Shown: piece by piece, positions 1,622 through 55,374 of the stretch | Position numbering within the stretch: the stretch's first letter is position 1 | Layout: every line of letters starts with the position of its first letter | Origin: Chiloscyllium plagiosum | Taxonomy: Eukaryota | DNA length: 62,159 bases | Direction: 5' to 3' | Assembly: GCF_004010195.1 (NCBI RefSeq) | Contig: NC_057754.1 | Span: forward strand, 2,199,238-2,261,396 | Made by a program: the position numbers and the translations under genes | The notes under the pieces: model-generated | Told to the model about the DNA's origin: nothing | The model's database searches: none | The model's input: only the letters and a program-made list of their open reading frames with translations

Positions 1622-1820
1622 AGAGTCGAAACGTGTGGCTCTGGAAAATCATTGCCGGTCAGGCAGCATCCAAGGAGCAGGAGAATCGATGTTTCGGGCA
1701 TAAGCCCTTCGTCAGGAAACGTCAATTCTCCTGCTCCCTGGATGCTGACTGACCTGCCATGCTTTTCCAGCAACACACTTTTCGACTCTGATCTCCAGCA
1801 TCTGCAGTCCTCACTTTTTC
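1622..1820. mobile_element. Penelope-like pLTR-derived inverted-repeat insert, family A
   Basis: ~70-bp inverted arms around a hammerhead core; 12-bp TSD CTATTAATCTGG at 1610-1621 and 1821-1832. Confidence 0.8.
1688..1715 (-). ncRNA. Minimal hammerhead ribozyme core (PLE family A)
   Basis: Minus strand reads CTGACGA-A-GGGC-TTAT-GCCC-GAAAC-ATC; stem I only ~2 bp. Confidence 0.65.
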
Positions 1821-2361
1821 CTATTAATCTGGGGACTCAGTTACATGTCTGGAGACCTGGGATCGAATCCTGCCATGGCGTGTGGTGGAATATGAATTCA
1901 ATAAAAATCTGAAATTTTTAAAAATCGCATCTGGTTCACTAATGTCCTTTAGAGACAGGAACGGCCATCCTGTGTGAATTGTCCAGGAACTTGTAGTGAG
2001 GAAGTGATGCTGTGGGAGTGACAGGTTCCTGGTTGATTTACACCATTTGGCTGATAGCTGTTGTCTAATAGCTTACCCACTTTCCTCATCGCCTCCTTCA
2101 CTGAACCCAAAATTGTTGTACATCTCTGATACATAACAGCATCAGCATCTTTTCAGTGCAGAGATTTAAGTTTCTGCTATGCATATCAGGTATAAATAGG
2201 CAACAATGGAAACAGTAGTATCAATTGGCATTAGACACTTGAAATTGTTTTCTAAAACTCGAAGAAATGTATAAACTTTACTTCTTAAAAGGAGATAATT
2301 TGACCATAATATTTGTTTTAGCTTGTAAAAGAACTATGTAGCTTCATCCCACAAGGAGTCT

Positions 2362-2840
2362 TGTAAGAGTGGTCTCAGGATTGGAAGGTTTGAGCCGAGA
2401 GGAAGAGGCTGAATAGGCTGGGGCTATTTTCCCTGAAGTGTCGAAGACTGAGGGGGTGACCTTACAGAGGTTTATAAGATCGTGAATAGGGTAGGGTAGG
2501 GTAAATAAAAAAGGTCTTTTCCACAAGTTGGGGCAGTCCAAAACCAGAGGGCATAGGTTTAGGCCAAGTGGGGAAAGATATAAAAGAGACCTAAGGTGCA
2601 ACCTTTTCACACAGAAGTTGGTGTGTGTATGGAATGAGCTGCCAGAGGAAGTGGTGGAGGCTGGTACAATTGCAATATTTAAAGGGCATCTGGATGGGTA
2701 TATGAATAGGAAGGTTTAGAGGAATATGGGCCAAGTACTGGCGAATGGGGCTAGATTTATTTAGGATATCTGGTCTGCATGGATGAGTTGGACCGAAGGG
2801 TCTGCTTCCATGCTGTATATCTCTCTGACTATATGAGTCT
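2362..2840 (+). mobile_element. CR1 (HER1-like) 3' fragment
   Basis: ORF 2528-2719 SKTRGHRF..FTQKLVCVWNELPEEVVEAG; tail matches 600-693. Confidence 0.9.
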
Positions 2841-3189
2841 TCCTATTGTGTTTAAATCATGTAGATCTTACTTGGTGAACTGGGTCACCACCAATGTGAA
2901 GTCCAAGAGTAGATTTGTAACAACATATTGAAGTGGATTCAGAAGTTGTTGGCCTCGTGTACACTCTATTTAAATCTATTGTATCCCAGATCAATACATT
3001 TGTAAATTATTTTTCTACATAATATTAAGACACCATGACCTAAGTTCAGTTTAAAGAAGGAATAATAATTGTATAAAAGACCATATTTTCTCTCACCTTG
3101 ATCCACAAGGTGCGCTTTTGGAAAGCGGCACTATAATGTTATAATTGGAATTGCCTGAGATTTCGCTGCACGTATTAGATTGGTTCAAC

Positions 3190-3455
3190 TGAGTCCTATT
3201 CAACTGGGCGTAAAAGAGGCCATGACTGCTATTTCAAAAGAGAACAAGAGAATTTGCCTCAGTTTCCTGGGCCAATATCGGTCCCTCAACCAAAGGCAGG
3301 CAGAGTGAATCATTGTCACATTGCTATCTCCTGGAAATTGAAGTGAGCTGCTGAACTTTCTACAATGCAATAAGTATACTTCGGAGTTATTTCCTTGTCA
3401 GTAAAATGCCTTGAGAGATCCTATGGATGTGAAAGATGCTGATTAAATACAGGTT
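3190..3455 (+). mobile_element. Deu-domain-type SINE, degraded
   Basis: GGGCGTAAAAGAGGCCATG..CCTGGGCCAATATCGGTCCCTCAACC; tail GTGAAAGATGCTGATTAAATAC. Confidence 0.6.
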
Positions 3456-3895
3456 TTGTTATTCATCCCAAGGTGAGTGAACTACAAAAACCCATTCTGC
3501 AATAATCTTCTGAACAGGTTAAAAAAAAATGACCACATGACCCATGAGGATCATTATACATAGAGCACCTGGGAATGAGGAGAGCAGCTGGAATGTAGCC
3601 AAAGGGTTCAAATGCTTTATATATAGAAGAACATTTGCAGGCTGAAGCTAATTGAACAGTTTGGATAGTTTATATATAGACAGAAAGATGCCCCTAAGGT
3701 TACAGAGTGGAATCTAATCAAGAAGCTTCAGTAGCTAATACTGTATTTGGAATTACGGATGGATAGGAATGAGTTACAAGTCAGAATCTACATGAAATGT
3801 TCCAAATAGTGTTTGTATTTATTGATTGACCTGCTCACTGCCATATATATAGCCTTACAATTACTCCAGAATGGAGTAATTTTATGTTGTTAACA

Positions 3896-4014
3896 AAATG
3901 TTGAATATCTGAAATAAAAATAGAAAATGTTGGAACACCAAGCAAGTTAACTCCTTACTGGTGCTGACCAACTTGCTGGTCAGTGTTTTCACAGTATTCT
4001 CATTTCATTTCACA
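3896..4014. mobile_element. Degenerate PLE-type inverted-repeat relic
   Basis: Arms resemble those of the 44700 and 47141 inserts; no hammerhead core left. Confidence 0.45.
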
Positions 4015-4404
4015 GTGTACTGTTGATTCAAAGGGCTGATTGTATTGTAGGGTTAGCTGCATCCTTGTTCTAGACTTAAGTATATGCCTGTGTGATGCTT
4101 GCAGTAGAAGAGTAACAGCTATAGTATCCTTAAATTGAAATTATTACAGTTTATTAACAAAGAGCTCCATGGGTTGATATATATTGAAGGTAGATTGGTA
4201 AGTTTTGTTAAAATTTGTTGTGATATGGACACATGCACATACATACACACAACCACAGACACACGCACACACGCATGCGCTCATACACAACCACTTTCAA
4301 GTAAAGTCAGGAACTTCAAAATAAAAATTCATGAGGATTGCAAATGCCATCAGATGTCTTCATGCTGCCTGTTTGCATCAGTGGTGGAGGACGTGAATGA
4401 TCAA

Positions 4405-5465: not shown

Positions 5466-5469
5466 TATT

Positions 5470-5580
5470 ATTAAAAATCGCACAACACCATGTTATAGTC
5501 AACCAGGTTTATTTGGAAGTACAGACTTTTGGAGCACTGCTCCTTTGTCAGGTAACTTGTGGTGCAGAATTTATAGTAGC
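5470..5580 (-). mobile_element. PLE family C pLTR fragment with decayed hammerhead
   Basis: Matches the left arm of 24578-24874; minus strand CTGACAA-A-GGAGC-AGT-GCTCC-AAAA. Confidence 0.7.
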
Positions 5581-5591
5581 TACCTACACTG

Positions 5592-7785: not shown

Positions 7786-8302
7786 GAAGTGCAGCCTTTT
7801 GGAGCACTGACCATCAAATATGTTTGAGGCCGTTATGATGTGTAAGCTCTGCTGCACTTGAGCAGACACCTTTTTACGGTGCCTGACTCTAAGACCATCC
7901 AATCTTACCTTTTCTATATCCTTTTCCTGCTCTTAATAATAGAGTAGAGACACTTCCACTGAGAATTAGTTGCCTTCAGCGCAGAGCCATATTTTGAGTG
8001 CAGGTGATTAAACTAGCAGCACAAGTCTTGACTGAACTCTAAAGGACTAATGAGGTGATTTTCAGACCAAACTTTAGTGGTAATTTACAAAACGGTCTTC
8101 TCAATGTGATATCCCCTCAGGGATACCTTACTGCAGCTCTCAGCCTAACTTAAATAATGACAGTAATTGTTTGGGGCAGGTTTAGGGTAATGAAGAAATG
8201 GATTGGAGGGGTTAGTCACAACCCTCGACTCCAGTTATATTAAGCTTTTTATCTCCTGAGTTTAAAACTACTCAAAACTACTATCTGAGTTTAAGTGGGG
8301 AT

Positions 8303-8502
8303 TTAGAGTCATAGAGATATACAGCACGGAAACAGACCCTTCGGTCCAACTCGTCCATGCCGACCAGGTATCCTAAATTAATCCAGTCCCATTTGGCCCA
8401 TATCCCTATAACCCCTTTCGATCCATGTCCCCATCCAGATGCCTGTTAAATGTTGTCATTGTACCAGCCTCCACCACTTCCTCTGGCAGCTCAATCCATA
8501 CA
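8303..8502 (-). mobile_element. CR1 (HER1-like) 3' end
   Basis: AGAGTCATAGAGATATACAGCACGGAAACAGACCCTTCGGTCC is the reverse complement of the 650-693 tail. Confidence 0.9.
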
Positions 8503-10094
8503 CATATTTGCGCAGTTTTTTTTGTATAATCCAGTTTGAAACGGGAAAGAAAAATCCATTTCCTTAATTCTGGATAAAGTAGAGCAGGAGTAAATAGGAA
8601 ATGAATGTGTACAACTCATAACAATGAAATAACGTCTGCTAGAGACAATGTATGGGAATAGCAATTCTGCAAGATCAAGGCCTCCACCACCTCAAGGGCA
8701 ACTACATCTTGACCTTGTCAGAGATGCCCATATCCCAAGATGGATTTTTGTATTTCCAATCAACAGATTGTGATATTTTAGTCTGGTCCATGATACATGC
8801 AGAACTTCTCAACCTAGTGAATGGGTTAGAATATGGGACCTGTGAGCTGGATAAACACTTGAAGGAGAAGGGCACACAGGATATGATGATAAGATAAAAT
8901 GAAGAGGGGTGGGATGAGGCTAGGGTAAGTGATAAACATTGAGCTAAATGGCCTTTTTTTCCTATGTTGGTGCATTCACCCATTTCTCATCAGATCCTTC
9001 CTTCATATCAATGTCAACAAATGCATAAAGCGAGCTCCTGCTTTTCTAAGTTGTCCTTGTAACATATTCCATAATGTGTGATGCTCTGGATGATTGAGTT
9101 TTATCTGACTTCTCTTTTTAGTTCTACTTCTCATTTATTAATTTCTGTAAAATTACCTTACATTGTCAGATAACAAATATTTCCATTCCCTGTGACTAGG
9201 CACTTGCACTGAGCCCAGATTTATAGCACTGAGTCTCTAGTTTTTGGGATCAATAGTGAGAGGACTCTATAGTAAAATAGAAAGATGACATTTCATGCTG
9301 ATAACTGCTTCTGTAAGTTCCTCTGTGAATCTGCCATTTGGTGCCTTTCCAATGCTCCTAGTCTGTCTCTGGGGATTCTTTAACAATTGTGGAACATGTG
9401 TGTAATGGGCATTTAGAATTTATTTAAACCGCCTCCAAAGGAAAGCACATAAACATTGCAAGAGGGCACTGACTCCAATAGAACCCATGATGGATGGCTC
9501 TCCTGGGACCCCAGTCAGTGCCGCATGTAGAACAAACTGTTTTCTGTTTACCCCTCACAGATAAACAATGGTGTTTGGAGAAACTATCTAATTTAAACTA
9601 CATATCTCGTGAAGATTTATTTTGTGCTGTGACTGTAGGATCATAATGAGAAATGGAGGGGACTGCTGTGCATTCTAAATTTGTTGAGAGGATATAGCGT
9701 ACATCTCTTAATGAGAGAAAGCCCTGATGGCAAGTAAGCGGCAGCTTTATCTGCTCACACCAGTTGTAATCAGTCAATTTACCACCGTTTGGAGAATAAT
9801 CAGTGCTTTGGGAGTGTGCAGGCCTGTGGTACACATTTACCTCAGCATATGGCACTGACCTAATGAGGAATGATTCCAATGATGCCAGCCTTCACTCCTG
9901 TTCCTCGATTTCATCTTCACAGACTGTGAATGTTAGTAATCTCATCCAGTCTGAGGGGTTCCACTGATAAGCTTGTTCCCTACCCTCACCCATTGTACCT
10001 ATGCTTTCCAGCAGGCTTTCCAAATAACACTTTCCAGACTGGGATCAGTAATTCATTTCCCTTCCTAGACAACATCATCCAGGCTCAATTCTAT

Positions 10095-11727: not shown

Positions 11728-11845
11728 GATAAAGTGTGGAGCTGGAAAAAGTACAGCAGGTCAAGCAGCATCAGAGGAGCGGGAGAGTCGATGTTTCAGG
11801 CCAGGGCTCTTCATCAGGACCCAGCAGTCCTCACTATCTCCTAGA
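11728..11845. mobile_element. PLE family A insert with decayed hammerhead
   Basis: Homologous to 1622-1820; imperfect TSD TAAAGAGTGTT (11717) / TAATGAGTGTT (11846). Confidence 0.75.
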
Positions 11846-12519
11846 TAATGAGTGTTCTCAGGCTATACGATCAAAGTGAGTAATAAAACCAAGTCCATGA
11901 AATGTGTATGTGTTTTCTAGTAGGATCAAAGGTGAAGGTAAGTCCAAGCCCTTGCTGATTTATTCCAATGTATAAAATGTTAGGTTTACAAGGAAAATCC
12001 AGGAAATGTTTCTGACATATCAGTCCGGTATAAACCATTTGGAATGACTCATTAAAACCCCTTCCTTTAAAAATGCACCATTTCTGCAACTGGCTGCTCA
12101 ATGCACACAACTTAAATTTCAAAGCCCTATGAACGGTATTCTACCCCTTCCACGGTATATTCAAAAATATTTAATTAGTAAGATAAATTAAATAATTAAT
12201 ATGACATCTACATCTCAAATGCAGCTATTATTTCAATGGTAATCCCTGTAAAAACCTTTCCTGATACGAATCTTGTCTTTATTATAATACCTTAGGCTTG
12301 AACTGTGCTCCAGCCCTGAAGCATGTTTTGTTCTCTTTGCATTCATTCCTTGCTGATACCCTTCAGCAAGCAAGACTTGGATGACCTTCAAACTGCTGGT
12401 GTACCCTGTGCCATTTCTATACACACATTACAATGTATTTTATATTTGCATACATCAAGACTGAATGTTACAGGTAAATGATAAAAAGGACGTGGGACAT
12501 GGTAAAAGGTCTATTTGGA

Positions 12520-12747
12520 TGTAGGTTTGCTCACTGAGCTGGAAGGTTCAGTGGTTGGTGATTACCAACCGAAGGAAACCTAAACATATAAATAAAAAGC
12601 GGGCCATACCACCAACGCTTCACCGGAGGCTCACTGATGATGTTACCTAGTATGGTGACGAAATGTCTGAAAATGAACCTTCCAGCTCATTGAGCAAACT
12701 TATATCCAGAACCTCAACCTGACCTACAAATCATCTCAAAACTCGCT
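12520..12747 (+). mobile_element. PLE family B pLTR insert with short inverted arm
   Basis: 13-bp TSD AGGTCTATTTGGA at 12507 and 12748; 12517-12550 is inverted relative to 12674-12707. Confidence 0.8.
12631..12670 (+). ncRNA. Minimal hammerhead ribozyme core (PLE family B)
   Basis: TCA-CTGATGA-T-GTTACC-TAGTAT-GGTGAC-GAAA-T-GTC-TGA: 6-bp stem II, 3-bp stem I. Confidence 0.7.
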
Positions 12748-13639
12748 AGGTCTATTTGGACCAAGGTCTAGAGATAGAATTCAGTTTCATAATTGTATAA
12801 TATTTTGACGTTACATCACTGTTTATGGTTATGCTTCACAGTGTCAAACAGGATTTGATTGGAGGTGGATGATTAGTGAGATGACATTGGGTTACTTAGA
12901 ACACATGTCTTCCTGAATAGAATAAGCTAACGTGTTGAATAGCGGACTAGAACACTACCTATGTGGCTTGAGGGTAGAATTGAGACATGGCAGGTTTTTG
13001 TGGGAAGTTTGCATTGTAAATGTGTGCTTGGGAATTTATAATGGGCAAATTGACAGGAAACACATTACAAAATCTGATTAAGGGGGTGTCAACTCAGCAG
13101 TACTATACTACAGGAGATTGAACTAGCACTTGCACTTACAGGGAATTCGGACCAAACATCACACACAAATCATTTCAAGAACTGATCTCAGATAAACTTT
13201 TGAGACTGCTTCAAGGCAATGTTTCAAGTTGTCGTAAACTCAATTCTATTTTGGTATAAACCACCAATTTGAAGAGTAGGGAATCAGACCCACAAGCTCT
13301 AGATGCAAGGATCATTTTCAAGTAAATAGTTATAGTTTTCAACAATCCTTTGACCTCCCCAGTCTCAACACTCTGTCAGCAGAGCTTATTAGCATTCAAA
13401 GCAATTAATAATTTCAAATATGGTGCAGTAAATGTCAGAAAGCAGTATTAACCATTGCTGAATACTGAATCATGTGGCTCCCAAAGTCCCCATAACCTCT
13501 CCATGTTTGGCCAGATATGCCAACAAAGAACATCTGCCAGTGGGTTTGATGGATTTTCCGGGATTTGTGATAGATATATTTACTCTCCTTACCTATTCTC
13601 CTTACCTTTGCCACAGAGGGTGTGCAGCTGAGGATGACC

Positions 13640-14360: not shown

Positions 14361-14369
14361 AAGCAAGAC

Positions 14370-14660: not shown

Positions 14661-14669
14661 TTTCTCTCC

Positions 14670-15669: not shown

Positions 15670-15910
15670 GCATAAGAGCTATGACCAGGAATAGACAATT
15701 CAACCCCTTGATCCTGCTCTGCCATTTAATGTAATCACGGCTGGGCTTATTTTGGCTGCAACTCCACTATCCTGCCTGCTCCCTACAATCCTTCTAGCCA
15801 TTACTCATTAAAGACCGTCTATCTCCTCCTTAACTTTACTCAATGCCCAACAGCCACCAAACTCTGTGGTAAAGCATTCATAGATTCATAATCCTTTGAG
15901 AGAAGTAATT
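15670..15910 (-). mobile_element. Older CR1 3' end
   Basis: Similar to 21480-21720 and 51330-51560. Confidence 0.6.
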
Positions 15911-15911
15911 T

Positions 15912-16295
15912 TGAGTCATAGAATTATATAGCACGGAAGCAGACTCTTCGGTCCAACTCGTCCATGCCAACCAGATATCCTAAATTAACCTAGTCCCATT
16001 TACCAGCATTTGGCCCATATACCTTTAAACCCTTCCTATTCATATACCCATGCAGATGCCTTTGAAATGTTGTAATTGTATCAGCCTCCACCACTTCCTC
16101 TGGCATCTCATTCCACACATGTACCACCCTCTGCATGAAAGGGTTGCCCCTTAGCTCCCTTTTAAATCTTTCCCCTCTCACCTTGCTCCCTTTTAAATCT
16201 TTCCCCTCTCACCTTAAACCTATGCCCCATAGTTTTGGTATCCCTACCCTGGGAAAAAGACCTTGGCTATTCATCCCAATGATTTTATAAATTTC
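15912..16295 (-). mobile_element. CR1 (HER1-like) 3' end with internal 31-bp duplication
   Basis: ORF 15990-16181; TSD TAATTT; 16154-16184 repeated at 16185-16215. Confidence 0.9.
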
Positions 16296-18309: not shown

Positions 18310-18785
18310 ACTTATTCACACTGTGATGCTCTCACGTAACTGGGATAGGTCATGGGTTTGGAATGTTCTGGCCAAAAAGCCTTGAGTAACTGTAGTTTGT
18401 CTTGTAGGTGGCATAAACTGCTGCCATTGTAACACTGGTGAAGGGAGTGGATGCTTAAAGTGGTGGCTGAAATGCCACTCAAGTGGACTAGGCTGACTGA
18501 CCTCCAACAGTAAAAGTGAGGACTGCAGATGCTGGAAATTAGAGTCAAGAGTGTGGTATTGGAAAAACACAACAGGTCAGGCAGCATCCAAGGAGCAGGA
18601 GATTTGACATTTCGGGCAAAAGCCCTTCATCAGGACCTATAACAGCCACAACCCTCCTCCTTTGTGCTAGGTATGATTCCAATCACTGAAGTGTTTTCCA
18701 CCTAATTCCCATTGACGCCAGTTTGGTTAGCGATGCTTGATGCCATGTTTGCTGAAATGTCGCTTTAACATCAAAAGCAGTCAAA
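18310..18785 (-). mobile_element. LINE-B fragments interrupted by a PLE insert
   Basis: 18640-18780 matches 5020-5160; 18310-18480 matches the reverse complement of ~53700-53860. Confidence 0.65.
18511..18634 (-). mobile_element. PLE family A pLTR with hammerhead core
   Basis: Minus strand CTGATGA-A-GGGC-TTTT-GCCC-GAAA-TGTC; flanked by GACCTCCAACAG / GACCTATAACAG. Confidence 0.8.
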
Positions 18786-20657: not shown

Positions 20658-20955
20658 TAGAGTCACAGTCATAGAGATATACAGCACAGAAACAGACCCT
20701 TTGGTCAAACTCATCCATACTGAACAGATATCCTAAATTAATCTAGTCCCAATGCTAGCACTTGGCCCGTATCCCTCTAAAACGTTCTTATTCATAAACC
20801 CATCCAGATGCCTTTTAAATGTTGTCATTGTACCAGCCTCCACCAGTCCCTCTGGCAGCTTATTCCATACATGCCCCACCCTCTGTGTGAAAAGATTGCC
20901 CCGTAGATCCCTTTTAAATCTTTCCCCTCTCATCTTAAACCTATACCCTCTATTC
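20658..20955 (-). mobile_element. CR1 (HER1-like) 3' end
   Basis: ORF 20733-20933 and the GAGTCATAGAG tail. Confidence 0.9.
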
Positions 20956-21344
20956 CCTCTAAGGGAAGGTTACATATTAACAAATTTTATTGATTTCTTT
21001 GAGGAGATAACCAGAAGCATTAATGAGGGAAATCCATTTGATATTTTTTTACATGGACTTTTTGGCAAGGCTTTTGATAATGCCCCTCATTGTAGATTGG
21101 TCAAGAATGTAACAGCCCATGAGATCCAAGGCAAAGTGACAGATTGAATCCAGTTATTAGCTGAGAGTAGGAAGCAGAGGGTGATGGGAGAGGTATGTTT
21201 CTGTGACTGGAAATCTGTTTCCAGTGGGGTTTTGCAGAACATGCTGTTGACATCTTTGCTGTTCATTTGTACATTAATGGTTTGGACTTAAATGTAAGGA
21301 GTATGATCAAGCAGTTTGCAGATGACACAAAAGTTGGTAGGTTG

Positions 21345-24275: not shown

Positions 24276-24577
24276 GAATGAATCATGTGCCCATCGGCCT
24301 GCTGATTAGCAACCGAGCACAGATTGTGAGGTAATGCTGTAATGTTCTGGGGAGGCCCCCAAATTGCCATGACATTTGTAATCTTTTTGAACAATGGTCC
24401 CAGTGTGCTACCATGTTAGTGAATCAGAAAGCTGCACACCCGACAATATGAGAGACTAGTGCATCTGGCACTGGTTCAGATCATGATTAACTGTAAGGTT
24501 GGGAATGATAGTTGGTTATAATTGCTGCTGAATTGTTGCTAACTGCATACTGTAGAATCTCACCTACCCAGAATAAG

Positions 24578-24874
24578 GTTAAAAATTACACAACACCAGG
24601 TTATAGTCCAACAGGTTTAATAGGAAACACTAGGTTTTGGAGTGCTGCTCCTTCATCAGGTGGTTGTGGAGTACACAATTGTAAGACACAGAACTAATAG
24701 CAATAAATTTGCTATAGATTCTGTATCTTACAATTGTGTCCACTACAACCCCCTGATGAAGGAACGGCGCTCTGCAAGCTAGTGTGCTTCCAATTAAACC
24801 TGTTGGACTGTAACCTGGTGTTGTGTGATTTGTAACTTTGTACACCCCAGTCCAACACTGGCATCTCCAAATCA
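24578..24874. mobile_element. PLE family C long palindromic insert
   Basis: ~125-bp inverted arms centred near 24706, with CTGATGA in each arm; 13-bp TSD TACCCAGAATAAG at 24565 and 24875. Confidence 0.85.
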
Positions 24875-25494
24875 TACCCAGAATAAGATTGATTCTGTCC
24901 AAAATAACTCCAGTTAAGACCTCTTGCATTCATAGGACAGAAGGACACCTATGTCGTCAGTTTGCATTTGATCCAAAACTTTATTCTGTTGAAATCAGTC
25001 ATTCCACTTGTAAACAATTGCAATACTTACCTAGACCATTCCCATCACTGCTGTTGGAAGGTGAACTCTGGCTTTCTGACAGACAGGACTTATGTTTTTT
25101 GAGTATTTAAGAAGTGGCATTGAAATTGAAAACTTCTGTGATATTAGTCAGTTTTGATTTTGTTCAGTCCTGTCTCTGCCACGCCTGTGCCTAAAACAGA
25201 CAACTCAGAAAACTGCAGATTCTTACAAATTCCTGAAATCACTCAGAATACTCTTTATGTGAATTTCAAATCTCAAAACAACGACTAGCATGTTTCCCAT
25301 TTTAAGCTAATTTTGCAACTGCAGGTGAATGTGATGGACATGTTCTAACTACAGTATGCATATACAGACAGGATTAGCACAACTGTCACAGGAATTTAAT
25401 AGAAAATGGAATAAAACATTAACAAAATGGTTAAACATTTTTGTAGCATAGCTGTAGAGGTATTTATATTATGGAAAAGTCCAAAACTCAGGAT

Positions 25495-31344: not shown

Positions 31345-32600
31345 GGAATGGGACTCTGGTGGTGGCATGGTGTGGGCTGGTGCAGCCAGAGTGGGGACTG
31401 TAGTAGCAGCATGATGTGGGCTGGTGAAGCCTAGAGGGGAATGTGGCAGCAGCATGGTGTGGGCAGGTGAAGCCCAGAGTGGGGACTGGTCAGCGGCATG
31501 GTGTGGGCTGGTGAATCCCGGAGTTGGGACTGATGCAGTGACATGGTGTGGGCTGGTGAGCCCAGAGGAGAATGTGGCAGCAGCATGGAAGTGGGGACTG
31601 GTGCAGCGGCATGGTGTGGGCTGGTGAATCCCGGAGTGGGGACTGGTGCAGCGACATGGTGTTGGCTGGTGAGCCCAGAGTGGGGACTGTGGCAGCGACA
31701 TGGTATGGGCTGGTGAATCCCGGAGTGGGGACTGGTGCAGCGGCATGGTGTGGGCTGATGAATCCCGGAGTGGGGACTGGTGCAGCAACATGGTGTTGGC
31801 TGGTGAGCCCAGAGTGGGGACTGTGGCAGCGACATGGTATGGGCTGGTGAATCCTGGAGTGGGGACTGATGCAGCGACATGGTGTGGGCTGGTGAGCCCA
31901 GAGGAGAATGTGGCAGCAGCATGGTATGGGCTGGTGAATCCCGGAGTGGGGACTGGTGCAGCGGCATGGTGTGGGCTGATGAATCCTGGAGTGGGGACTG
32001 GTGTAGCAACATGGTGTGGGCTGGTGAGCCCAGAGGGGAATGTGGCAGCAGCATGGTGTGGGCTGGTGAAGCTCAGAGTGGGGACTGGTGCAGCTACATG
32101 GTGTGGGCTGGTGAAACTCAGAGTGGGGACTGGTGCAGCGACATGGTGTGGGCTGGTGAAACTCAGAGTGGGGACTGGTGCAGCTACATGGTGTTGGCTG
32201 GTGAATCCTGGAGTGGGGACTGTGGCAGCGGCATGGTGTGGGCTGGTGAATCCCGGAGTGGGGACTGGTGCAGCTACATGGTGTGGGCTGGTGACGCTCA
32301 GAGTGGGGACTGGTGCAGCAACATGGTGTGGGCTGGTGACGCTCAGAGTGGGGACTGGTGCAGCAACATGGTGTGGGCTGGTGAAGCTCAGAGTGGGGAC
32401 TGGTGCTGCTACATGGTGTGGGCTGGTGACGCTCAGAGTGGGGACTGGTGCAGCTACATGGTGTGGGCTGGTGACGCTCAGAGTGGGGAATGGTGCAGCT
32501 ACATGGTGTGGGCTGGTGAAGCTCAGAGTGGGGACTGGTGCAGCAGCATGGTGTGGGCTGGTGAAGCTCAGAGAGGGGACTCTGGCAACTGTTTGGAGCT
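31345..32600. repeat. 45-bp G-rich minisatellite, ~28 units
   Basis: Unit GAGTGGGGACTGGTGCAGCTACATGGTGTGGGCTGGTGAAGCTCA; 15-aa periodicity in overlapping ORFs. Confidence 0.95.
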
Positions 32601-33164
32601 GGAAGGCCGGCATGGACTGGTTGGGCTGAATGGCGTAACTCTGTTCTGGATGTTTTCTGTAATCCTGTCTTTAGAGATATATTGAACAGATTGAAATGGA
32701 AGTATTATCAGATATATATTAATAATTATTTGGTATGAAAGGTGTGCTTTACAAACAAAAATCTATTCTAAAGCAGCCATTCTAATATACTCTTCTGAAT
32801 GGAGTCAACTCAAACAAGTTTCTCAAAACATCAGTTTGGGAAAGTTGCAAGGCGATAATACAATATTGAAATTCATGCAGGGTGTAAACTGGCTGTCACA
32901 ATGACACATGAACCCTCAAACTATATTACTGATTCGTTATTCATTTTTGTGAATTGATGTATCCGTGTTCAATACACTCAGGGCTACCGACAGATGATGC
33001 TTTTCTCCCGCACACTATCCATTATCAAGACAGAATTTGCCATGTCCAGCTGCCAGTGTGACACTTTCACAACTTTATTAACATCATGATAGGAATTTTT
33101 TTGAAATTTCAAAATTAAGAAAACTGTTACCTCCAAGCACATAGATCAGTGAACATAAATATTG

Positions 33165-33377: not shown

Positions 33378-33595
33378 CTACAGACTGCTTAAACACAATT
33401 TCCCTTTCATAAAGCCATGTTAGCTCTGATGGATCACAGTGTGATTTTCTAAGTAACCTATTGCAACCTCCTCAATAATGGAATATAGCATCTTTCCTAA
33501 AACAAACATGAGGCAAACTAACCCACAGTTTTCTGCTTTATGCTTCTCTACTTTCTTGAATCGCTGGAGAAGTCAGAGATCTTGGAATGTTGTCG

Positions 33596-34140
33596 AGTCA
33601 TAGAGATGTGCAGCACAGAAACAGACTCTTTGGCCCATGCCGATCAGATATCCCAACTTAATATAGTCTCATTTGCCAGCACTTGGCCCATATCCTTCTA
33701 AACCCTTCCTATTCATATACCCATCCAGATGCCTTTTAAATATTGTAATTGTACCAGCCTCCACCACTTCCTCTGGCAGCTCATTCCATACACATACCAC
33801 CCTTTGCATGAAAAAGTTTCACCTTAGGTCCCTTTTAAATTTTTCCCCTCTCATCTTAAACCTATGCCCTCTAGTTCTGGACTCTCCCAACCCAGGGAAA
33901 AGACCTTGTCTATTCACCCTATCCGTGCCCCTCATGGTTTATAAACCTCTTTAAGGATCCCCTCAGCCTCCAACACTCCAGGGAAAACAGACCCAGCCTG
34001 TTCAACCTCTTCCTATAGCTCAAACCTTCTAACCCTGGCAACATCCTTGTAAATCTTTTCTGAACCCTTTCAAGTTTCACAACATCCTTCCTATAGCAGG
34101 GAGACCAGAATTGTAGAATTGTACACAATATTCCAAAAGT
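33596..34140 (-). mobile_element. CR1 (HER1-like) 3' fragment
   Basis: ORF 33919-34128 QFWSPCYRKDVVKLERVQKRFTRMLPGL; HER1-type tail. Confidence 0.9.
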
Positions 34141-36097: not shown

Positions 36098-36228
36098 AGG
36101 AGAAAGTGAAGACTGTAGGTACTTGAGAGTCAGAATCAAAAAGCGTGGGGCTGGAAGAGCACAGCAGATCAGGCAGCGTCCGAGGAGCAGGAGAATCAAC
36201 ATTTCAGGCATAAGCCCATCATCAGGAA
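36098..36228 (-). mobile_element. PLE family A pLTR with hammerhead-like core
   Basis: Minus strand CTGATGA-T-GGGC-TTAT-GCCT-GAAA-TGTT; ATTGTTCA on both flanks. Confidence 0.8.
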
Positions 36229-36679
36229 TTGTTCATTGGCCAGAAATGTGTAACTTGCCTTCCTCCTCACACAACTGCTGTCTGACCTACCGAGAGTTTC
36301 TGATAGGAAGTCAGAAAATGCAGCTCCTCTCTTTACTATCTGTACAGACAAGAGCAACTTACTTGTGGTGACTGCAAACATTCACACTCGTTATTCTCAG
36401 CGATGTGGCGCTCTCAGGTGATGTGGCACTTCCTAACAAGCTCTCTGTTTTCAGCATGTTTGTCAGCCAGTCCCCCAGAATCACTTGGAGTACATGCCTA
36501 TAATGAGCACCTGCACGCTCCCACACAGCCTAGGTCTGGATTTCAGCCAAGTAGCTGTGAACAGAAGGGACACTCGTCTGTGAACTACCCTCGCACACCT
36601 CTCAGCGGCTGTGTTCAAAACAGCACGAGCTGCAGCTGTCCAGGGGGCAAGACAGGCCAAATTCAACAATGGCTCAGGG

Positions 36680-36830
36680 ACAAAAGCAGAAGATGCTAGA
36701 CAGAAAAACACAGAAGCCTCATGAAAGGTCACAAAGCTGAAAGGTTACCTCTATTCCTTTTTCCACCCACCTAATTGTATCCAGCATTTTTGGTTTCTGC
36801 TTTGTTTTAACTTTCCAGTATTTGCAGTAT
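36680..36830. mobile_element. Degenerate PLE family D relic
   Basis: CTCATGAAAGGTCACAAAGCTGAAAGGTT resembles the core at 44825; tail TTTCCAGTATTTGCAGT. Confidence 0.45.
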
Positions 36831-37009
36831 TGTAATGCATAAAAATGCGTTACTCGGATGATGAGGGAAAAAAAAATCTTGTCAGGGAAATTTATAGGAA
36901 ATAGTTAACAGATGATGATAACATATTTGACTTTGATATTTGGAACCACATTCTGGTAATGCGGGGTAACAAGCCACCAATGATGGGCCCTGCTGTCCAT
37001 ATCTTAACT

Positions 37010-37215: not shown

Positions 37216-37425
37216 TTTAGGGCACCTTCTTTCTATAGATTGTACGTTCTTTGCTTCTCAGAACTTTACATAAGGCTAAGGAAATTGTCTGGATAGCTCA
37301 CAGGTTTGCTGTTCATATCAAGGAACAACAGAATTTCAGTGTCCTCTTGATCTGCGAGCAGAAGACATATGATTAATGATTTAGTAAAATGGCTCATTGA
37401 TTGCAAGGAACTTTGGATCCATTAC

Positions 37426-37950
37426 TCTGGGATCTCTCTGTTCCTGTACCCTGGGATCTCTCTGTTCCTGTACCCTGGGATCTCTCTGGTGCTGTACCCT
37501 GGGATCTCTCTGGTGCTGTACCCTGGGATCTCTCTGTTCCTGTACCCTGGGATCTCTCTGGTGCTGTACCCTGGGATCTCTCTGGTGCTGTACCCTGGGA
37601 TCTCTCTGGTGCTGTGCCCTGAGGTCTCTCTGGTGCTGTGCCCTGAGGTCTCTCTGGTGCTGTGCCCTGGGATCTCTCTGGTGCTGTACACTGGGATCTC
37701 TCTGTTCCTGTACCCTGGGGTCTCTCTGGTCCTGTACCCTGGGATCTCTCTGTTCCTGTACACTGGGATCTCTCTGTTCCTGTACCGTGGGATCTCTCTG
37801 GTGCTGTACCCTGGGATCTCTCTGGTCCTGTACCCTGGGATCTGTCTGGTTTCTTATTGTGGTGAACTCTCTGGTCCTCTACTATGGAGTTCTCTCTGGT
37901 CTTGTATTCTGGAATATGTCTTGTTGTGTTCTCTGAGGATCTCTCTGGCT
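37426..37950. repeat. 24-bp minisatellite, ~18 good units plus degenerate ones
   Basis: Unit CTGGGATCTCTCTG(T/G)T(C/G)CTGTACC; 8-aa periodicity in overlapping ORFs. Confidence 0.95.
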
Positions 37951-37959
37951 CTGTTAAGT

Positions 37960-43257: not shown

Positions 43258-43499
43258 CAACCACTCCCCATGCTAGTGAGTTCCAGATGCTCAACAGTTT
43301 CTACATATAAAGTTCCTATCATATTTTTACTGACTATTTTATATCAACAGCAACAAGTAATGCTGTCCCATAAGAGGAAATATTCATTCCTTCTCCTTTC
43401 AATCGAAACTTTTCAAAATTTTGAAGACCTCAAATAGGTAACCCCTCGCCCTTTTCTTTCAAGAGTGAAGAAACCAGGAGACCCATCCTATTATCCTCT

Positions 43500-43826
43500 C
43501 ATAGAGTCATAGAGATATACAGCATGGAAACAGGCCCTTCAGTCCACCTCAATATCTTAAATTAATCTAGTCACATTGGTCCATATCCCTTTAAACCCTT
43601 CTTATTCATCTACCTATCCAAATGCCTTTTAAATGCTATAATTGTACTGGCTTCTACCACTTTCTCTGGAAGTTCATTCCATATATGCACCGCCCTTTGC
43701 GTGAAAGGTTGCCCCTTTTAAATCTTTCCCCTCTCACCTTAAACCTATGTTGTCTGGTTTTGGACTCCCTTACCCCAGGGAAAAGACCTTCACTATTCAC
43801 CCTATCCATGATTTTATAAACTTCTA
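43500..43826 (-). mobile_element. CR1 (HER1-like) 3' end
   Basis: CATAGAGTCATAGAG tail; homologous to 33596-33950. Confidence 0.9.
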
Positions 43827-44077: not shown

Positions 44078-44526
44078 AATCATAGAGTCATAGAATTGTA
44101 TGGAATGGAAACAGACCCTTCGGTCCAACCAGTCCGTGCCAACCATAATCCCAAACTAATCTAGTCCCACCAGCCTGCTCCTAGCCTATATCCCTCCAAA
44201 CCTTTCCTATACATGTACTTATCCAAATATCTTTTAAGCATTGTAATTGTACCAACATCCATCACTTCCCTCAAGAAGCTCATTCCACATGTGAACCACC
44301 CTCTGTGTAAAAATATTTGCCCCTTATGTCTTTGTTAAATCTTTCCTCTCTCACCTTAAAAGTGTGCCCCCTCATCTTGAAATCCCCCATCCTAGGGAAA
44401 AGATAATTACCATTAAGTCTATCTATGCCCCTTAATATTTTATAAACTTCTATAAGGTTGCCTGTCAACCTCCTACACTCCAGTGAAAACAGTCCCAGCC
44501 TATCCAGCCTTTCTTTATAACTCACC
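44078..44526 (-). mobile_element. CR1 3' fragment inserted into a Rex-type tail
   Basis: ORF 44280-44528 SYKERLDRLGLFSLECRRL; host CTTTTCACTGTA resumes as CATGTGACAATAAA and (TTCAA)n. Confidence 0.85.
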
Positions 44527-44699: not shown

Positions 44700-44923
44700 A
44701 AACCAAAAAATTGCAAATGTTGGAAATCAGAAACAAAAACAGAAATTGCTGGAGAAACTCAGCAAATCTGGCAACATCTCTAGAAAGAGACACAGAGTTT
44801 CAGTGGTCCAGTCCATTTCACTTTCTGAAAAAAGGGTCAGTGGACCTGAAACGTTAATTCTGTTGTATTTCCACAGATGCTGCCAGATCTGCTGAATTCC
44901 TCCAGCAATTTCTGTTTTTGTTC
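44700..44923. mobile_element. PLE family D inverted-repeat insert
   Basis: Arms AACAAAAACAGAAATTGCTGGA / TCCAGCAATTTCTGTTTTTGTT; core CTGAAAA..GGGTC-AGTG-GACCT-GAAACGTT from 44825. Confidence 0.75.
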
Positions 44924-46949
44924 CCTTTTCTCAACATTATCCATTGCAGAAATCCAGAGAAATTACACACCTATCATCTCAATTCTTAAGTTTCTGCTTA
45001 ACTGACTCCTTACAGTTTCTTTGACTATGGAGGCAATTCACTGAGTACTTTCCAAATCTGCCAGCATGACTTCTCACAAATTTAAGAACTTAAACTTTTG
45101 CAGTTCCAATAACCTGTGCATTACGAACCAAACTCTCCTGGTTTGGAAACTTCAAAAGCTAACCCTTCTGTTAAAGCAACTGCTTCCATGAGCTACTCTG
45201 AAATCTTCCTCCCAGTAGAGAAATTAAACTTGCTTCTGCCCTCAACTTTGCTGAATTTTGGAAACCTTTCTCATCCTAGATTCTTATGAAATGGAAACAA
45301 AGTCAACAGCCATACGTGTTTATTCCAGTTACAACAGTATAAACGTCTTTCCATTAACACACCAAGGATCTGCAGTCACCTCCTTTATAACAAATACTAG
45401 ATTTAGTCACCGTTCCAGAAGGTCTTTCTGACCTTGTCTTTTTTTAAAACATGAAAATCCTTCAAGGAAGTAACCAACAATTATGTGCTTCTGTTTTGAA
45501 ATGAAAATTCCAAGTATGATATTAGTACAAATTAAAGTAAACACCCTTCATCACAGTGCTTGTAAATCTTCTTTGCATCCTATCCAGTGCCTTGATCTCA
45601 TGTTTTAAAAACAGTGACCAGAAGTACCCTTAAGTGTAATTTGACCAAAATTTGTTGCACGATATATGACTTCACTGTTTTTCAATTCTCTCCCTCTGCA
45701 TTGGAAATCCTTTTTCTTTCAGTCTTGTAAACTGGAACCAGTTTCTGAGAAACTGCTGCTGGAAGAGCAAGGAGTTTCACAACAGGCAGGAAGGAGCCAC
45801 TTGTTAAAGAAACACAAGTGCCAGCAAAGAGAAATGTTTTTGACGGCAGGGAGTCAAATGGACAGGAGAGGCTCTGCATGGAACTGTGGGTTTCCTGTTT
45901 ATCTATCTTACTTTAAGAATTAGGTTTACTGGAATTTATTGGGTATCACATCCAAACATTCATGCCTGTTTTATTGGAGCTTTGATGGCTTGTGTCTCAA
46001 ACATGTTCAGCTTGTGTGAAAACTTTAAACTCAAAGGCACACCTACCTTTTTTATGGGACACTTGGAAGGCTGCAATTTGCAGTGTTTCAGTGAATAACA
46101 AACGATGCAGAAACCAGGGCAAGGAAATGAAATGTTTCCTTGAAATCTGATGTGTGAGAGAGAAAGTTGTCAAGTTAAACAAATGGAGAAGTAGAGTGGG
46201 TTGCATTAGTTGTCTTCCTGATCTGCCCTAGCTTCTCGTTTGATTCTCACCATCCAGTGGTAAGCTCACCTCCCATTTTTTTGACATTCAAAATCTAGTC
46301 AATGTTGAAAAAAAAACTAAGCAGAATTTCCTTCCTTCTTTGAGGGGGAGGTTTCTTGCCAATGATTTCCTATCTGTGCTCTTTTCAGAATGAAGGTGCT
46401 CATTGCAGGCACCAGCTTCACTAACCTGTTCACAAACACACTACAGCTGTCTCCCCTCCAGTTCAGGATTCTGATAAAACAAGAATTCTCAGTGCCATTT
46501 CCTCAGGGGACAGGCATTGTCCTTGAAGAGCAACACTTGCTGTCCCTGTTTCATTTGTCTCTTGACAGGCTGCTCTGAGCTGTCGCTTCTGGCTGAGCAT
46601 ATATAAAATATAAAAGTGCCTTTCTGGGGAATGAATTGATTAGTACACAGCTTGAAAGCAGAGCAGCAGCCTTGGATTCTAGGATAGCTAAGGGGAGCCA
46701 GAATGATTACAAGAATCTATTTGTCATGGAAGCACAGCAATATAATTGATCTTGAGATGTGGGTGTCATTAGATGTTTATATTGTTTTGCAGCTTTTCCC
46801 TTCACATTTTCTTTGCGAACCAACTCAAGCTGGATTAATACAGCACCACAAACACAGGTCATTATCTGGTATTACAACCAAGAGGTCATTCAGCCTCTGC
46901 TAACCTGAGTGAATTTTAGCAATCTGCCAGCTGTCTCTGATAGAGCTCA

Positions 46950-47520
46950 GTTGGTAGCACCTTTCACAACCTCAAGACATCCCGTAGTACTTCACAGGCA
47001 GTACAGTCAAACTCCTCAGAAAGCTGACAGCCAAATTGTGCACAGCAAGCTTCCTCAAATGACAATATGATAACAAGCAGATAAGCAATGTTTTTGTGTG
47101 TAATAAATAATGGCCGCAAGACACCAGAGAGAATTCCCTTTGAAACAAAAACAGAAACTGCTGGAAAAGCTTCAGCAGCTCTGGCAGCATCGGTGGAGAG
47201 AAATCAGAGTTAACATTTCAGGTCGAGTGTCCCTTCCTCAGAACTGTTCTGAGTTCGAGGAAGGGTCACTCGACTTGAAACATTAACTCTGATTTCTCTC
47301 CCTTGATGCTGTCAAACCTGCTGAGTTTTTCTAGCAGTTTCTGTTTTTGTTTCTGATTTACAGCATCTGTTGTTTTTTTCAGTTCCTCTTTGGGAAATGT
47401 CAGTGTGGATCTATTCATCACACTGAAGTGAGGATTCAGGACAAGCTGTTTAAGATCTCATTCAAAAATGGCCCTGACATATCAGCCTACATTTGTATTC
47501 AGAACCTGGAGTGGTGGTTA
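46950..47520 (-). mobile_element. Deu-type SINE split by a PLE insert
   Basis: AGCACCTTTCACAACCTCAAGACATCCC..CAGCCAAATTGTGCACAGCAAGC; resumes after 47380. Confidence 0.65.
47141..47380. mobile_element. PLE family D palindromic insert
   Basis: ~100-bp inverted arms centred near 47246, with a hammerhead-like core in each arm. Confidence 0.8.
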
Positions 47521-50407: not shown

Positions 50408-51214
50408 TACATAGAACATAGAAAAGTACAGCACAGAACAGACCCTTTGCCCCACCATGTTGTGCCGAGGATTAATTCTAATGTAAAACAAAATAACTTA
50501 ACCTACTCATCCTGCAATTGACTGCTATCCGTGTGCATGTCAGGAATTGCTTAAATGTCCCTAATGATTTTGCTTCCACCACCACCGCTGGCAACGCATT
50601 CTATACATTCACAACTCTCTGCGTAAAGAACCTTCCTCTGACATCCCCTCTCTACCTTTCTCCTAATATCTTAAAACTATGATCCCCTCGTGCCAGTCAG
50701 TCCTGCCCTGGGGAAACGTCTCTGGCTATTGTCTCTATCCATTCCTCTCATTACCTTGTATACCTCGATCAGGTCACCTCTCTTCCATCCCTCTCTCCAG
50801 AGAGAAAAGTCCGAGCATAGTCAACCTCTCTTCATAAGGCAAGCTCTCCAGTCCAGGCAGCATCCTGGTAAACCTTCTTTGCACACTCTCCAAAGCCTCT
50901 GTATCTTTCCTATAGTAGGGGGGCCAAAAGTTGACACAATATTCCAAGTGTGGCCTCACCAGGGACTTGCAAAGCTGTGGCAAAACCTCACGGCTCTTAA
51001 ACTTGATCTCCCTGTTAATGAAAGCCAAAACACCATATGCTTTCTTAACAACACTATCCACTTGGGTGGCAACTTTGAGCGATCTATTTACTTGAACACC
51101 AAGATCCCTCTCTTCCTCCACACTGCCAAGAATCCTGTCTTTAATCCTATATTCAGCATTCGAGTTTGACCTTCCAAAATGCATCACTTTGCATTTATCC
51201 AGGTTGAATTCCAT
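50408..51214 (-). mobile_element. CR1 3' fragment with (CATAGAA)n tail
   Basis: ORF 50774-51214 MEFNLDKCKVMHFG..LVRPHLEYCVNFWPPYYRKD. Confidence 0.9.
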
Positions 51215-51319: not shown

Positions 51320-51678
51320 CATAAGACCATAAGACATAGGAGTGGAAGTAAGGCCATTCGGCCCATTGAGTCCACTCCGCCATTTAATCATGGCTGATGG
51401 GCATTTCAACTCCACTTACCAGCATTCTCCCCGTAGCCCTTAATTCCTTGTGACATCAAGAATTTATCAATCTCGGCCTTGAAGCCACTTAGCGTCCCTG
51501 CCTCCACTGCACTCCGCGGCAATGAATTCCACAGGCCCATCACTCTCTGGCTGAAGAAATGTCTCCGCATTTCTGTTCTGAATTTACCCCCTCTAATTCT
51601 AAGGCTGTGCCCACGGGTCCTAGTCTCTTCGCCTAACGGAAACAATTTCTTAGCGTCCACTCTTTCCAAGCCATACAA
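51320..51678 (-). mobile_element. Young CR1 3' fragment with (CATAAGAC)n tail
   Basis: ORF 51406-51702 TRTRGHSLRI..FFSQRVMGLWNSLP; CpGs retained. Confidence 0.9.
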
Positions 51679-52998: not shown

Positions 52999-53322
52999 GG
53001 TGGCTCAGTGGTTAGCAGTACTGTCTCCCAGCACCAGGAAATCAAGTTCGATTCAACCCTCAGGCAATTGTCTGTGTGGAATTTGCACATTCTCCCCATG
53101 GTGCTCCAGTTTCCTCCCATAGTCCAAAGATGAGCAGTTTAGGTGGAATGGCTGTGATAAATTGCCCAGAGTTTCCAAGGATGTCCGGGCTAGGTGGGTT
53201 AGCTATGAGAAATGTAGGATTTCAGGAATAGGGTAGAGGGTGAATCTGGGTGGGATGCTCGTCAGGGGATCAGTGTGGACTCGAAGGGCTGAATGGCCTG
53301 CTTCCACAATGTAGAAATTCTA
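52999..53322 (+). mobile_element. HE1-type V-SINE
   Basis: A box TGGCTCAGTGG, B box GTTCGATTC, CR1-type tail. Confidence 0.85.
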
Positions 53323-53517
53323 AAATAAATGGCTTTGGGATTATCATTGACCAGAAACTAAATCAGACATATTAAAAACTTTGACTACAAGAGATGGTCA
53401 GAGGCTGGGAATTCTGCAATGAGAAACTCACCTCCTGTCTTTCCAAAGCCTGTCCATCATCCACAAGGCACAACACAGGAATATGATGGTTTCTGCATAT
53501 CTGGATGAGTGCAGCTC

Positions 53518-53634
53518 ATCCTTTGCTCTGTTCTGTTACCCTATTGCACTTTGTATGGTATGATCTGCCAGTATTGCATGCAAAACGAAAGTTTTCATGG
53601 TACCTCGGTACATATGACAGTAATAAATAAAATC
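53518..53634 (+). mobile_element. Rex1/Babar-type 3' tail insert
   Basis: Homologous to 39720-39846; interrupts LINE-B at GAGTGCAGCTC / CAACAACA. Confidence 0.7.
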
Positions 53635-54827
53635 ACTCCAACAACATTCAAGATGTTCAACACCATTGAGGACAAAGCAGCTTGTTTGATTGGCACGTCA
53701 TTGAACAAAATCAATATTTACTTCCTCCATCATCCACGGTCAGTAGCAACAATGTACCATCTCCAAGCTGCACTGCAGCAACTCACCATTAACAGCTCCT
53801 TCCAAACAGGTGATCTTTACTATCTAGAAGGACAAGGGCAGCAGATACATGGGAACACCACCCTCTACAACTTCCCCTTCAACCACTCACCATCCTGACT
53901 TGTAAATATATTGCCGTTCCTTCAGTGTCACTGTGTCAAAGTCCCGGATCTTCCTCCCTAACAGCATTATGGGCACATCTACTCCCCACACAGGGCAGCT
54001 TGGCTTCTCCAGGGGCAATTAGGGATGGACAGTAAACGCTGGCCCATGAGTGAGTAAAACCAAATGCTGCAGCCAAACAGTAAACTCTTCCTATGCCACC
54101 AGTAGGAGGGTCAGCTTTGAACTGAAAGGTACACACTAACCTTTACCTGCTCAGCAACCTGCGCCTCTCTGCCCCTTCAGGATTCAAATGATTGGCCCAG
54201 AGTTTCCCTCTCTGATCCTTTCACATTTTCAACTTCTCTCTACAGAAGTGGCGTTTCCATGAATCATCGTGTAATGATGACTAGTTGGGGGAGGATTATA
54301 TTTCAAACAGGAATCAGTCAGTACAGATACATTCTGATAATGAAATTTATGGCATGGAGTCTTTGGACAGGATGTGCAGAGTCGAATTGAATCGCAAAAG
54401 AAACCTTGTAATTAGCACACAATTGAATTCTGATTGATTCCGTCTACTTTTTTGATGTTCTAATTGATTGCTTCCTTCCATCTCCTTCCCTGAGCATTTC
54501 CTTTACCATCTACCTGACTGAGACCACAGAAACGGTGCTATCTTTTCACTAATCCTAGATTCTCCTTTTAGTGTGGAGTTAGTTGAACTCAGTCTGGCAG
54601 TTAGTGTGCCGTTCCAGTTCCTCCCAGCATCCCAGGGAAAGATTTTCAGCAAGGTTCCTTCTTCTATCACTTGCTGAAATACGCCGTTATGTGTGTTGGA
54701 TACATTGGGCTTGTAAGGGGCGCATGCAAAAGAGATGTGACTCAGTCGCTAAGATTGCTCCTTCGGAGTTAGAAAGTCAAGGGATCAAGCCTCGCTTCAG
54801 ACTGACTCCCCTACTGCAGCGGAGATG

Positions 54828-55070
54828 ACCTGGGGGTTGCAGTGAGAGAGAGACTCACTGAGATTCTTGTGGAGAGAGGAGGAGAACTTCTTCAAAGTAG
54901 GCATCCTTACAAGAGGATTCGCAATAAGGTTAAAATCAACTAGGCAAAAGTGAGGACTGCAGAGGCTGGAAACCAGAGTTTAGATTAGAGTGGTGCTGGA
55001 AAAGCAAGCAGGTCAGGCAGCATCCGAGGAGCAGGAAAATTGACGTTTCGGGCAAAAGCCCTTCATCAGG
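54828..55070 (-). mobile_element. PLE family A pLTR plus adjacent internal sequence
   Basis: 54945-55070 homologous to 18511-18634; extends ~110 bp further. Confidence 0.75.
55042..55069 (-). ncRNA. Minimal hammerhead ribozyme core, intact consensus
   Basis: CTGATGA-A-GGGC-TTTT-GCCC-GAAAC-GTC; stem I not formed in this copy. Confidence 0.75.
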
Positions 55071-55230
55071 AGGGAAAGCTGCATTGCTGGAGGTAACATA
55101 TGTTTGTGAGCAACAGTAGGCCGAGGACCTGTCTGTTCTCTCAGGTGGACACAAATGAAGCTACAATACCATGAAGAGTGGGGGAGATGGGGGGAAGCGA
55201 CTCCTCAGACTCATGGGCCATTTGCATTCC

Positions 55231-55374
55231 AAGTCCCTCCTCCCTACCTTTTATCTTAGCCTACTTGGCACACCCTCCTCATTCCTGAAGAAGGGCTTAT
55301 ACCAGAAACGTCGATTCTCCTTCTCCTTTGATGCTGCCTGACCTGCTGCGCTTTTCCAGCAACACATTTTTAAG
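55231..55374 (+). mobile_element. PLE family A pLTR fragment
   Basis: 12-bp TSD CATTTGCATTCC at 55219 and 55375; CTGAAGA-A-GGGC-TTAT-ACCA-GAAACGTC from 55285 (stem II mutated). Confidence 0.85.

Follow-up and report, generated by a model that had tools for sequence, protein, structure and literature searches.

A stretch of 62,159 nucleotides from the genome of the shark Chiloscyllium plagiosum (contig NC_057754.1, positions 2,199,238 to 2,261,396 of the forward strand; hereafter the window) contains many short inserts with minimal hammerhead ribozymes of the kind found in Penelope-like elements (PLEs). Endonuclease-bearing PLEs encode a reverse transcriptase (RT) with a C-terminal GIY-YIG domain and have pseudo-long terminal repeats (pLTRs) with TATA and initiator (Inr)-like motifs; heavy 5' truncation, an inverted 5' copy, an optional tail and target duplications of 8-13 bp are described for them (PMC8557442, PMC3846280; all published work is cited here for what its available text contains). 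The hammerhead was dispensable for insertion of a Penelope element in vitro (PMC11167929). The inserts described below are probably end-pieces of four coding PLEs, copied from the front end of uncut RNA. The elements and their minimal hammerheads are of a known kind, and the new point is a used polyadenylation (poly(A)) site in the pLTR of one of the four families.

Hammerhead inserts in the window and the genome

A first-pass annotation of the window had listed 12 hammerhead-bearing inserts in four families, A to D. With profiles built from exact-match genome loci, 17 window segments were detected (7 of family A, 2 of B, 3 of C and 5 of D) and none in the reversed window sequence that served as control. 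Sixteen of these lie within 11 of the 12 listed sites, and the seventeenth is a weak D-like piece at 36233; the remaining site, 36680, is borderline, aligning to family D at E 0.034 only (Table 1). The stem II pairs of all four families are as the annotation wrote them. The common CTGANGA/GAAA(C) layout is likewise real, except that family C reads GAAA-GC-UA and not GAAAC. CTGANGA..GAAA is preserved in 8 of the 17 segments, and none of the 17 agrees with its family majority in all of core, stem I, stem II and stem III palindrome, in keeping with the earlier impression that most copies are decayed; the segment nearest to its majority is the family B copy at 12634. Five sites (1622, 12520, 24578, 44700 and 47141) hold head-to-head pairs. 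Exact target duplications of 12-13 bp flank 4 of the 12 sites, while at 5470, 18511, 36680, 44700, 47141 and 54828 no duplication rose above control.

Table 1. Hammerhead-related features of the window, followed by the family C stub at the mitochondrial SSB gene. Positions are those of the window unless a locus is named; C3 is the residue of the hammerhead core counted as 0 throughout; ORF, open reading frame; UTR, untranslated region.
Feature	Position	Strand	Target duplication	Details
Family A head-to-head pair	1622..1820	.	12 bp, 1610-1621 / 1821-1832	Minus-arm hammerhead C3 at 1715; plus arm from GAAAC
Family C stub	5470..5578	-		Core broken; internal deletion puts TATA box close; AATAAA at 5513
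Family A stub	11728..11845	-	Possible, 11 bp, 1 mismatch; borderline against control	C3 at 11817, then short inverted tail piece
Family B (putative Poseidon-type) insert	12520..12748	+	12 bp, 12508-12519 / 12749-12760	Hammerhead C3 at 12634; best-preserved window copy; short inverted arm 12520-12550
Family A stub, long tail	18511..18633	-		C3 at 18633
Family C head-to-head pair	24578..24874	.	13 bp, 24565-24577 / 24875-24887	C3 at 24659 (-) and 24753 (+); ATTAAA in both arms (24621, 24793)
Family A stub	36098..36227	-		C3 at 36225; adjoins older D-like piece
Older D-like piece	36233-36301			E 0.013; beside family A insert 36098, whose target it seems to have been
D-like piece, very decayed	36680..36835	+		E 0.034, borderline
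Family D head-to-head pair	44700..44944	.		Core broken
Family D head-to-head pair	47136..47373	.		C3 at 47241 (-)
Family A copy with ORF start	54812..55071	-		Hammerhead C3 at 55069, tail, 44 first codons
Family A copy	55231..55374	+	12 bp, 55219-55230 / 55375-55386	54 nt of 3' UTR; C3 at 55285; stem II broken
SSB-linked family C stub and exons	L267:1440-1750 (G000:C14), L268:2874-3053, L269:5766-6023	minus		ATTAAA intact

The strict patterns of the four families have 36,558 exact matches in the 3.56 Gb of genome searched (A 18,219; B 385; C 17,799; D 155), and the reversed patterns have none. Five regions picked regardless of content, the window among them, amount to 737,774 non-N bases and hold 265 segments, or 359 per Mb (range 247-438) and 2.7% of bases; by rough extrapolation, about a million segments would be present genome-wide. 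The full core is kept in 83 of 210 unbiased core-spanning copies. The 265 segments include 90 head-to-head pairs as against 23 loose same-strand neighbours within 1 kb, and none of the 87 tandem arrays in these regions has a hammerhead core. Tandem arrays of the window, with 45-bp and 24-bp units and no hammerhead core, lie at 31350-32706, 37331-37946 and 58784-62159.

Clustering of 373 copies gave 14 groups of at least three, and 13 of the 14 majorities parse as hammerheads, which agrees with the annotated presence of minimal type I hammerheads in Penelope pLTRs. All 13 are paired at stem I positions 1-2 and stem II positions 1-4, through C-G, A-U, U-A and G-C pairs, so the stem II covariation that the annotation proposed to check is seen among subfamilies. 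The stem III palindrome is CG in 8 majorities, GC in 3 (those of family C) and TG in 2, where CpG decay is the likely cause; several ribozyme lineages with a palindromic stem III, as first suggested, are therefore present. The cleavage triplets are GUC, GUU, CUA and CUU, and position 3 of stem I is a U-U mismatch in young family A. With their core, stem II, palindromic stem III, short stem I and NUH triplet, the majorities have the traits of minimal type I hammerheads. The metazoan PLE hammerheads of PMC4209133 are alike in CUGANGA, one bulged base, the G-C closing pair, the short stem I and palindromic 15.2/16.2; they too fall into many families within one genome, mostly occur singly in truncated elements and are sometimes paired on opposite strands. 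The available text of that study names fishes, coelacanth (about 4,000) and Xenopus (about 9,000) and no shark; its counts and the 36,558 exact matches here were obtained by different methods and are only loosely comparable.

An alignment of 19 copies of families A, B and D (C was omitted, as MAFFT shifted it by one column) had 91% of its stem cells paired, compared with 64% after shuffling and 21-42% in slid controls; both sides had changed in 7 of 10 pairs. Since its rows represent few lineages, the alignment speaks for a fold kept by master elements and not for cleavage by stubs. Folding favours an inactive hairpin over the hammerhead by 1.5-4 kcal/mol in monomers of A, B and C. An Rfam scan returned no hammerhead among 10 matches at E<=10, which is no evidence against hammerheads because the Rfam models miss minimal motifs.

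Link to coding Penelope-like elements

Upstream of the hammerhead, all four families continue into RT and GIY-YIG pieces, so the coding link that the annotation had suggested looking for exists. In family A, the endonuclease C-terminus lies about 212 nt upstream of C3 and the RT thumb carries YIDD. In family C, RT and endonuclease are found upstream in two loci (L164 and L169), with 73% identity to a shark RVT_1 protein, and the 25 loci of family D have sense endonuclease pieces upstream in 12 and RT in 2. Among unbiased copies, endonuclease lies upstream in 9 of 19 in family B, 70-120 nt away, and in 12 of 120 in A, 1 of 31 in C and 1 of 40 in D; a YVDD RT belongs to family B locus L021. Pfam scores of the element pieces for RVT_1 and GIY-YIG are just below the curated cut-offs, and shark homologues of family C pass that of RVT_1. 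Between RT and endonuclease, a zinc linker reads CHRRNCKTC in A, CHGRRCKTC in C and CNRRKCNTC in D and is absent in B. A CX2-5CxxC linker at this place is the Neptune/Nematis criterion (PMC8557442), and the CX4CxxC form of A, C and D is Neptune-like in this respect, unlike B. Judging from the linker and from known motifs, A, C and D would be of Neptune/Nematis type and B of Penelope/Poseidon type.

The repeat is also found in front of the frame. In family A, the ORF start follows the tail of the front repeat in 30 ORF-start loci (L212-L241) and in the window, where 54943-54812 are the first 44 codons of the Penelope frame (80% identity to the family A ORF start, E 4.6e-17). The annotated ORF-less unit at 54828 is thus not non-coding, as it starts inside this ORF start. 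In family C, an ATG is present at about +119 in 4 of 25 loci, and one such copy starts at -12. The repeat is seen at both ORF ends in A and C and at the 3' end in B and D. The frame of PAc, the Poseidon element of Anolis carolinensis, begins within stem II (PMC11167929), whereas that of A and C begins at the tail or beyond it. RT plus GIY-YIG, a repeat at both ORF ends, and an inverted copy with target duplication mark the inserts as parts of endonuclease-bearing PLEs, with which A to D also share the optional tail (PMC8557442, PMC3846280). What differs from the PLEs described there is the dominance of 85-135 nt stubs in A, C and D.

Young family A elements (L136-L145) coincide with N runs of 2-6 kb, two of them flanked by hammerheads in opposite orientation, so copy numbers of long elements are underestimated. 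Open frames of 700-2,200 codons surrounding the endonuclease of family A were rejected as giant ORFs, since they are runs of N. The shark host proteins P0004, P0005 and P0006 (NOXP20-like, PPP1R12A-like and XRCC5 isoforms) contain pieces of the family C ORF at 61-94% identity, which may be exonised copies or annotation errors.

The first-pass annotation had interpreted the inserts as ORF-less, non-autonomous, retrozyme-like lineages. Retrozymes consist of head-to-tail repeats of 150-450 bp with mostly canonical hammerheads and yield circular RNA (PMC7229834, 10.64898/2026.07.22.740005). Like animal non-LTR retrozymes, which derive from pLTRs according to 10.64898/2026.07.22.740005, the inserts are short, non-coding and pLTR-related and carry a type I hammerhead. 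On this view, hammerhead RNAs would be transcribed from stubs, as independent retrozyme- or SINE-like (short interspersed nuclear element-like) units, and copied in trans by Penelope proteins, and the low share of A, C and D copies with endonuclease upstream fits this. However, the inserts are single or head-to-head, their hammerheads are minimal and they match ORF-bearing elements (compare PMC7229834); head-to-tail hammerhead units are lacking in all 87 arrays, and a lineage independent of coding elements did not emerge from the family A tree, the one tree made. In this tree (56 short and 23 long copies, 84 columns, low resolution), short and long copies interleave, and the short ones stood on one side in 0 of 200 bootstrap trees. 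In addition, stubs are without the TATA region, and a transcript from a family C stub would end in poly(A) ahead of the RT start sites discussed below. The RT and GIY-YIG link, the ORF start in the window, the interleaved tree and the arrays speak against the earlier interpretation, and independent non-autonomous elements now appear very unlikely.

Insert ends and the RNA of family C

After removal of 11 A and 1 B copies adjoining N, 5' ends fall at 0 to -15 from C3 in 69 of 105 copies of A, 19 of 30 of C, 26 of 38 of D and 1 of 18 of B; with better references, 28 of 31 family D ends lie within -9 to 0. In another 25 A, 4 B, 6 C and 20 D copies, the 5' end is within the core region. The median short 5' end is at -4.5 in A (62 of 102), -5 in D (all 31), -8 in C (27 of 45) and -15 in B (9 of 42), and TATA-like boxes lie at about -36, -33, -40 and -50, respectively, with an offset of 28-35 nt from box to 5' end in each of the four families. 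The 3' ends are bimodal, at about +84-94 and +125-129 in A, +83-90 and +119-124 in C, +75-82 and +113-117 in B, and +93-100 and +119-138 in D, and the two positions are 30-40 nt apart in all four families. This spacing matches that of PAc, in which two internal RT start sites yield a tail of 30-40 nt (PMC11167929). In 7 of the 30 family A ORF-start copies, the insert stops after the KQTR codons (about +290) and another pLTR piece follows; this break may be a third RT start site, although the query locus was itself included and the query ended there too.

Stubs copied from hammerhead-cut RNA would begin at the cut site. Two of the 30 ORF-start loci (L216 and L238) do start near it, but of 141 family A copies just 2 have their 5' end at the cut itself (+28 to +31) while 116 span the entire core, reads of families A and C do not pile up there in a poly(A) single-cell RNA library, and insertion of the anole element in vitro is unaffected by hammerhead mutants (PMC11167929). 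This origin is hardly credible; because their 5' ends are not at the cut site, uncut RNA was the likely template of the stubs. The hammerhead edge was also considered as a splice acceptor, with YAG at -17 in A and -3 in D, but family C lacks one there and the idea was dropped. In young family A, positions -7 to -2 read TTTATT, that is, AATAAA on the opposite strand and a possible antisense poly(A) signal.

The RNA reads come from this one poly(A) single-cell sample (run X19); a second run, X20, yielded no aligned reads. To the family C reference, 2,517 reads aligned, and 1,231 of them run on as poly(A) after +55 to +58, where the genomic sequence is not A-rich. The site lies 12-15 nt below ATTAAA/AATAAA at +38 and directly ahead of a GU-rich stretch, so that the order in family C is hammerhead, poly(A) site and then insert 3' ends. 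In three contig runs, loose ends were mainly at insert ends and, among the rows listed, none was at the poly(A) site. The hexamer ATTAAA or AATAAA is present in 52 of the 68 family C copies that parse (27 of 95 do not parse) and in 3 of 3 family C arms of the window, and a 30-nt pattern across the site has 36,101 exact genome matches. Families A, B and D have no conserved poly(A) hexamer. The family A reference drew 951 reads on both strands with no pile-up of starts or ends, and no poly(A) end on family A was among the reads listed.

One flank, seen in 88 RNA reads that enter the repeat from the host side, maps to a unique place, where a truncated family C stub follows a likely stop codon at a distance of about 200 nt. 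From the read length (28 + 55 + 68, about 150), these reads would carry poly(A). Two exons upstream on the same strand match mitochondrial SSB at E 2e-22 and 2e-11, and a second AATAAA lies upstream in the same 3' UTR. Family C poly(A) sites are used in RNA, and they may shape 3' ends and cause premature termination of shark host transcripts. In a literature search that left out most subscription papers and Repbase, neither a shark Penelope hammerhead nor a pLTR poly(A) site was found, and the supplements of PMC4209133 and of 10.64898/2026.07.22.740005, which sampled one cartilaginous fish, may hold such data. The available text on PAc (PMC11167929) describes neither a poly(A) site nor a 5' pile-up, seen here in C and in A, C and D, respectively.

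Origin of the stubs

How do short end-pieces come to dominate three families of coding elements? Element RNA would start just ahead of stem I, with the 5' pile-up marking the start of transcription. RT would begin about 85-125 bases inside the uncut RNA, in the tail of the front pLTR, and copy to the 5' end, and the stub of 85-135 nt would then be inserted. The two 3' ends would correspond to two internal RT start sites as in the anole element, of which uncut RNA is the main substrate, whose hammerhead needs protein help and whose protein cuts and extends both target strands (PMC11167929). Head-to-head pairs may come from end-joining of two such cDNAs or of a single one that has folded back. 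Active master elements would retain the hammerhead, which would cut only when dimeric or aided by protein, and the dispersed stubs would be dead copies. Family B behaves as an ordinary 5'-truncated element.

The pile-up could instead come from ordinary 5' truncation, with RT falling off or the cDNA folding back at the hammerhead hairpin, unrelated to any start of transcription. The region is self-complementary and forms the longer inactive hairpin in A, B and C, an inverted partner accompanies about half of the copies in A (58 of 116) and C (17 of 30), and self-priming has been suggested for such palindromes (PMC3846280). On the other hand, the ends lie upstream of the whole structure and shift with the TATA position between families, the same ends are found in 37 copies that have no inverted partner, and the strongest hairpin is that of family B, which has no pile-up. 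Truncation at the hairpin is therefore considered unlikely, and copying of uncut RNA from its front end remains the probable origin.

Several observations weigh against this origin. Family B lacks the 5' pile-up despite the clearest TATA, and the family A box is TTTATCT/CTTATCT and not canonical. The differences between short 5' ends (A versus C, p=0.012; C versus B, p=0.044) have p-values that are too small, since the arms of one pair were counted separately. Of 37 short copies without an inverted partner, 11 have upstream sequence in common with another copy, so that some may have been called short in error, and short family A copies cluster mildly in the tree (15 label changes versus 19.9 shuffled), as independent non-autonomous elements would. 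Both-side pair changes in the stem alignment do not exceed shuffles (305 of 500 reach the count), its rows being three lineages only. Runs of N in young long copies prevented the recovery of a full-length element free of gaps. Transcription starts do not pile up in the poly(A) single-cell reads of families A and C, which could reveal neither such starts nor the cut site; these reads cannot separate element-initiated RNA from host read-through RNA, and the poly(A) evidence is confined to a single sample and a single family.

Because the poly(A) site of family C precedes the RT start sites, terminated linear mRNA would have no start site in its rear pLTR and would give stubs only. Long copies would need read-through, or a circle formed by paired hammerhead cuts, and transcription would have to bypass the front poly(A) site. 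A front poly(A) site is skipped in retroviral LTRs. A circle by paired hammerhead cuts was proposed in outline in PMC4209133. It is possible, though doubtful, that the family C pLTR is LTR-like, with promoter, hammerhead plus poly(A) site and RT start in turn, and that long copies require a circular template joined by the hammerhead. Circles for long copies would explain why the ribozyme is kept although stubs come from uncut RNA. If so, hammerhead mutants should lose long insertions and keep stubs, and at least 36,000 intact poly(A) modules would lie scattered in the genome, some of them ending host mRNAs such as that of mitochondrial SSB.

Apart from the hammerhead inserts, the window has many copies of another repeat and an RT-like frame, at 8301-8535, 15908-16245, 20661-20966, 33595-33940, 43499-43815, 44080-44432, 338-693, 2494-2833 and 50774-51214; they presumably represent the 3' ends of CR1-type long interspersed nuclear elements.

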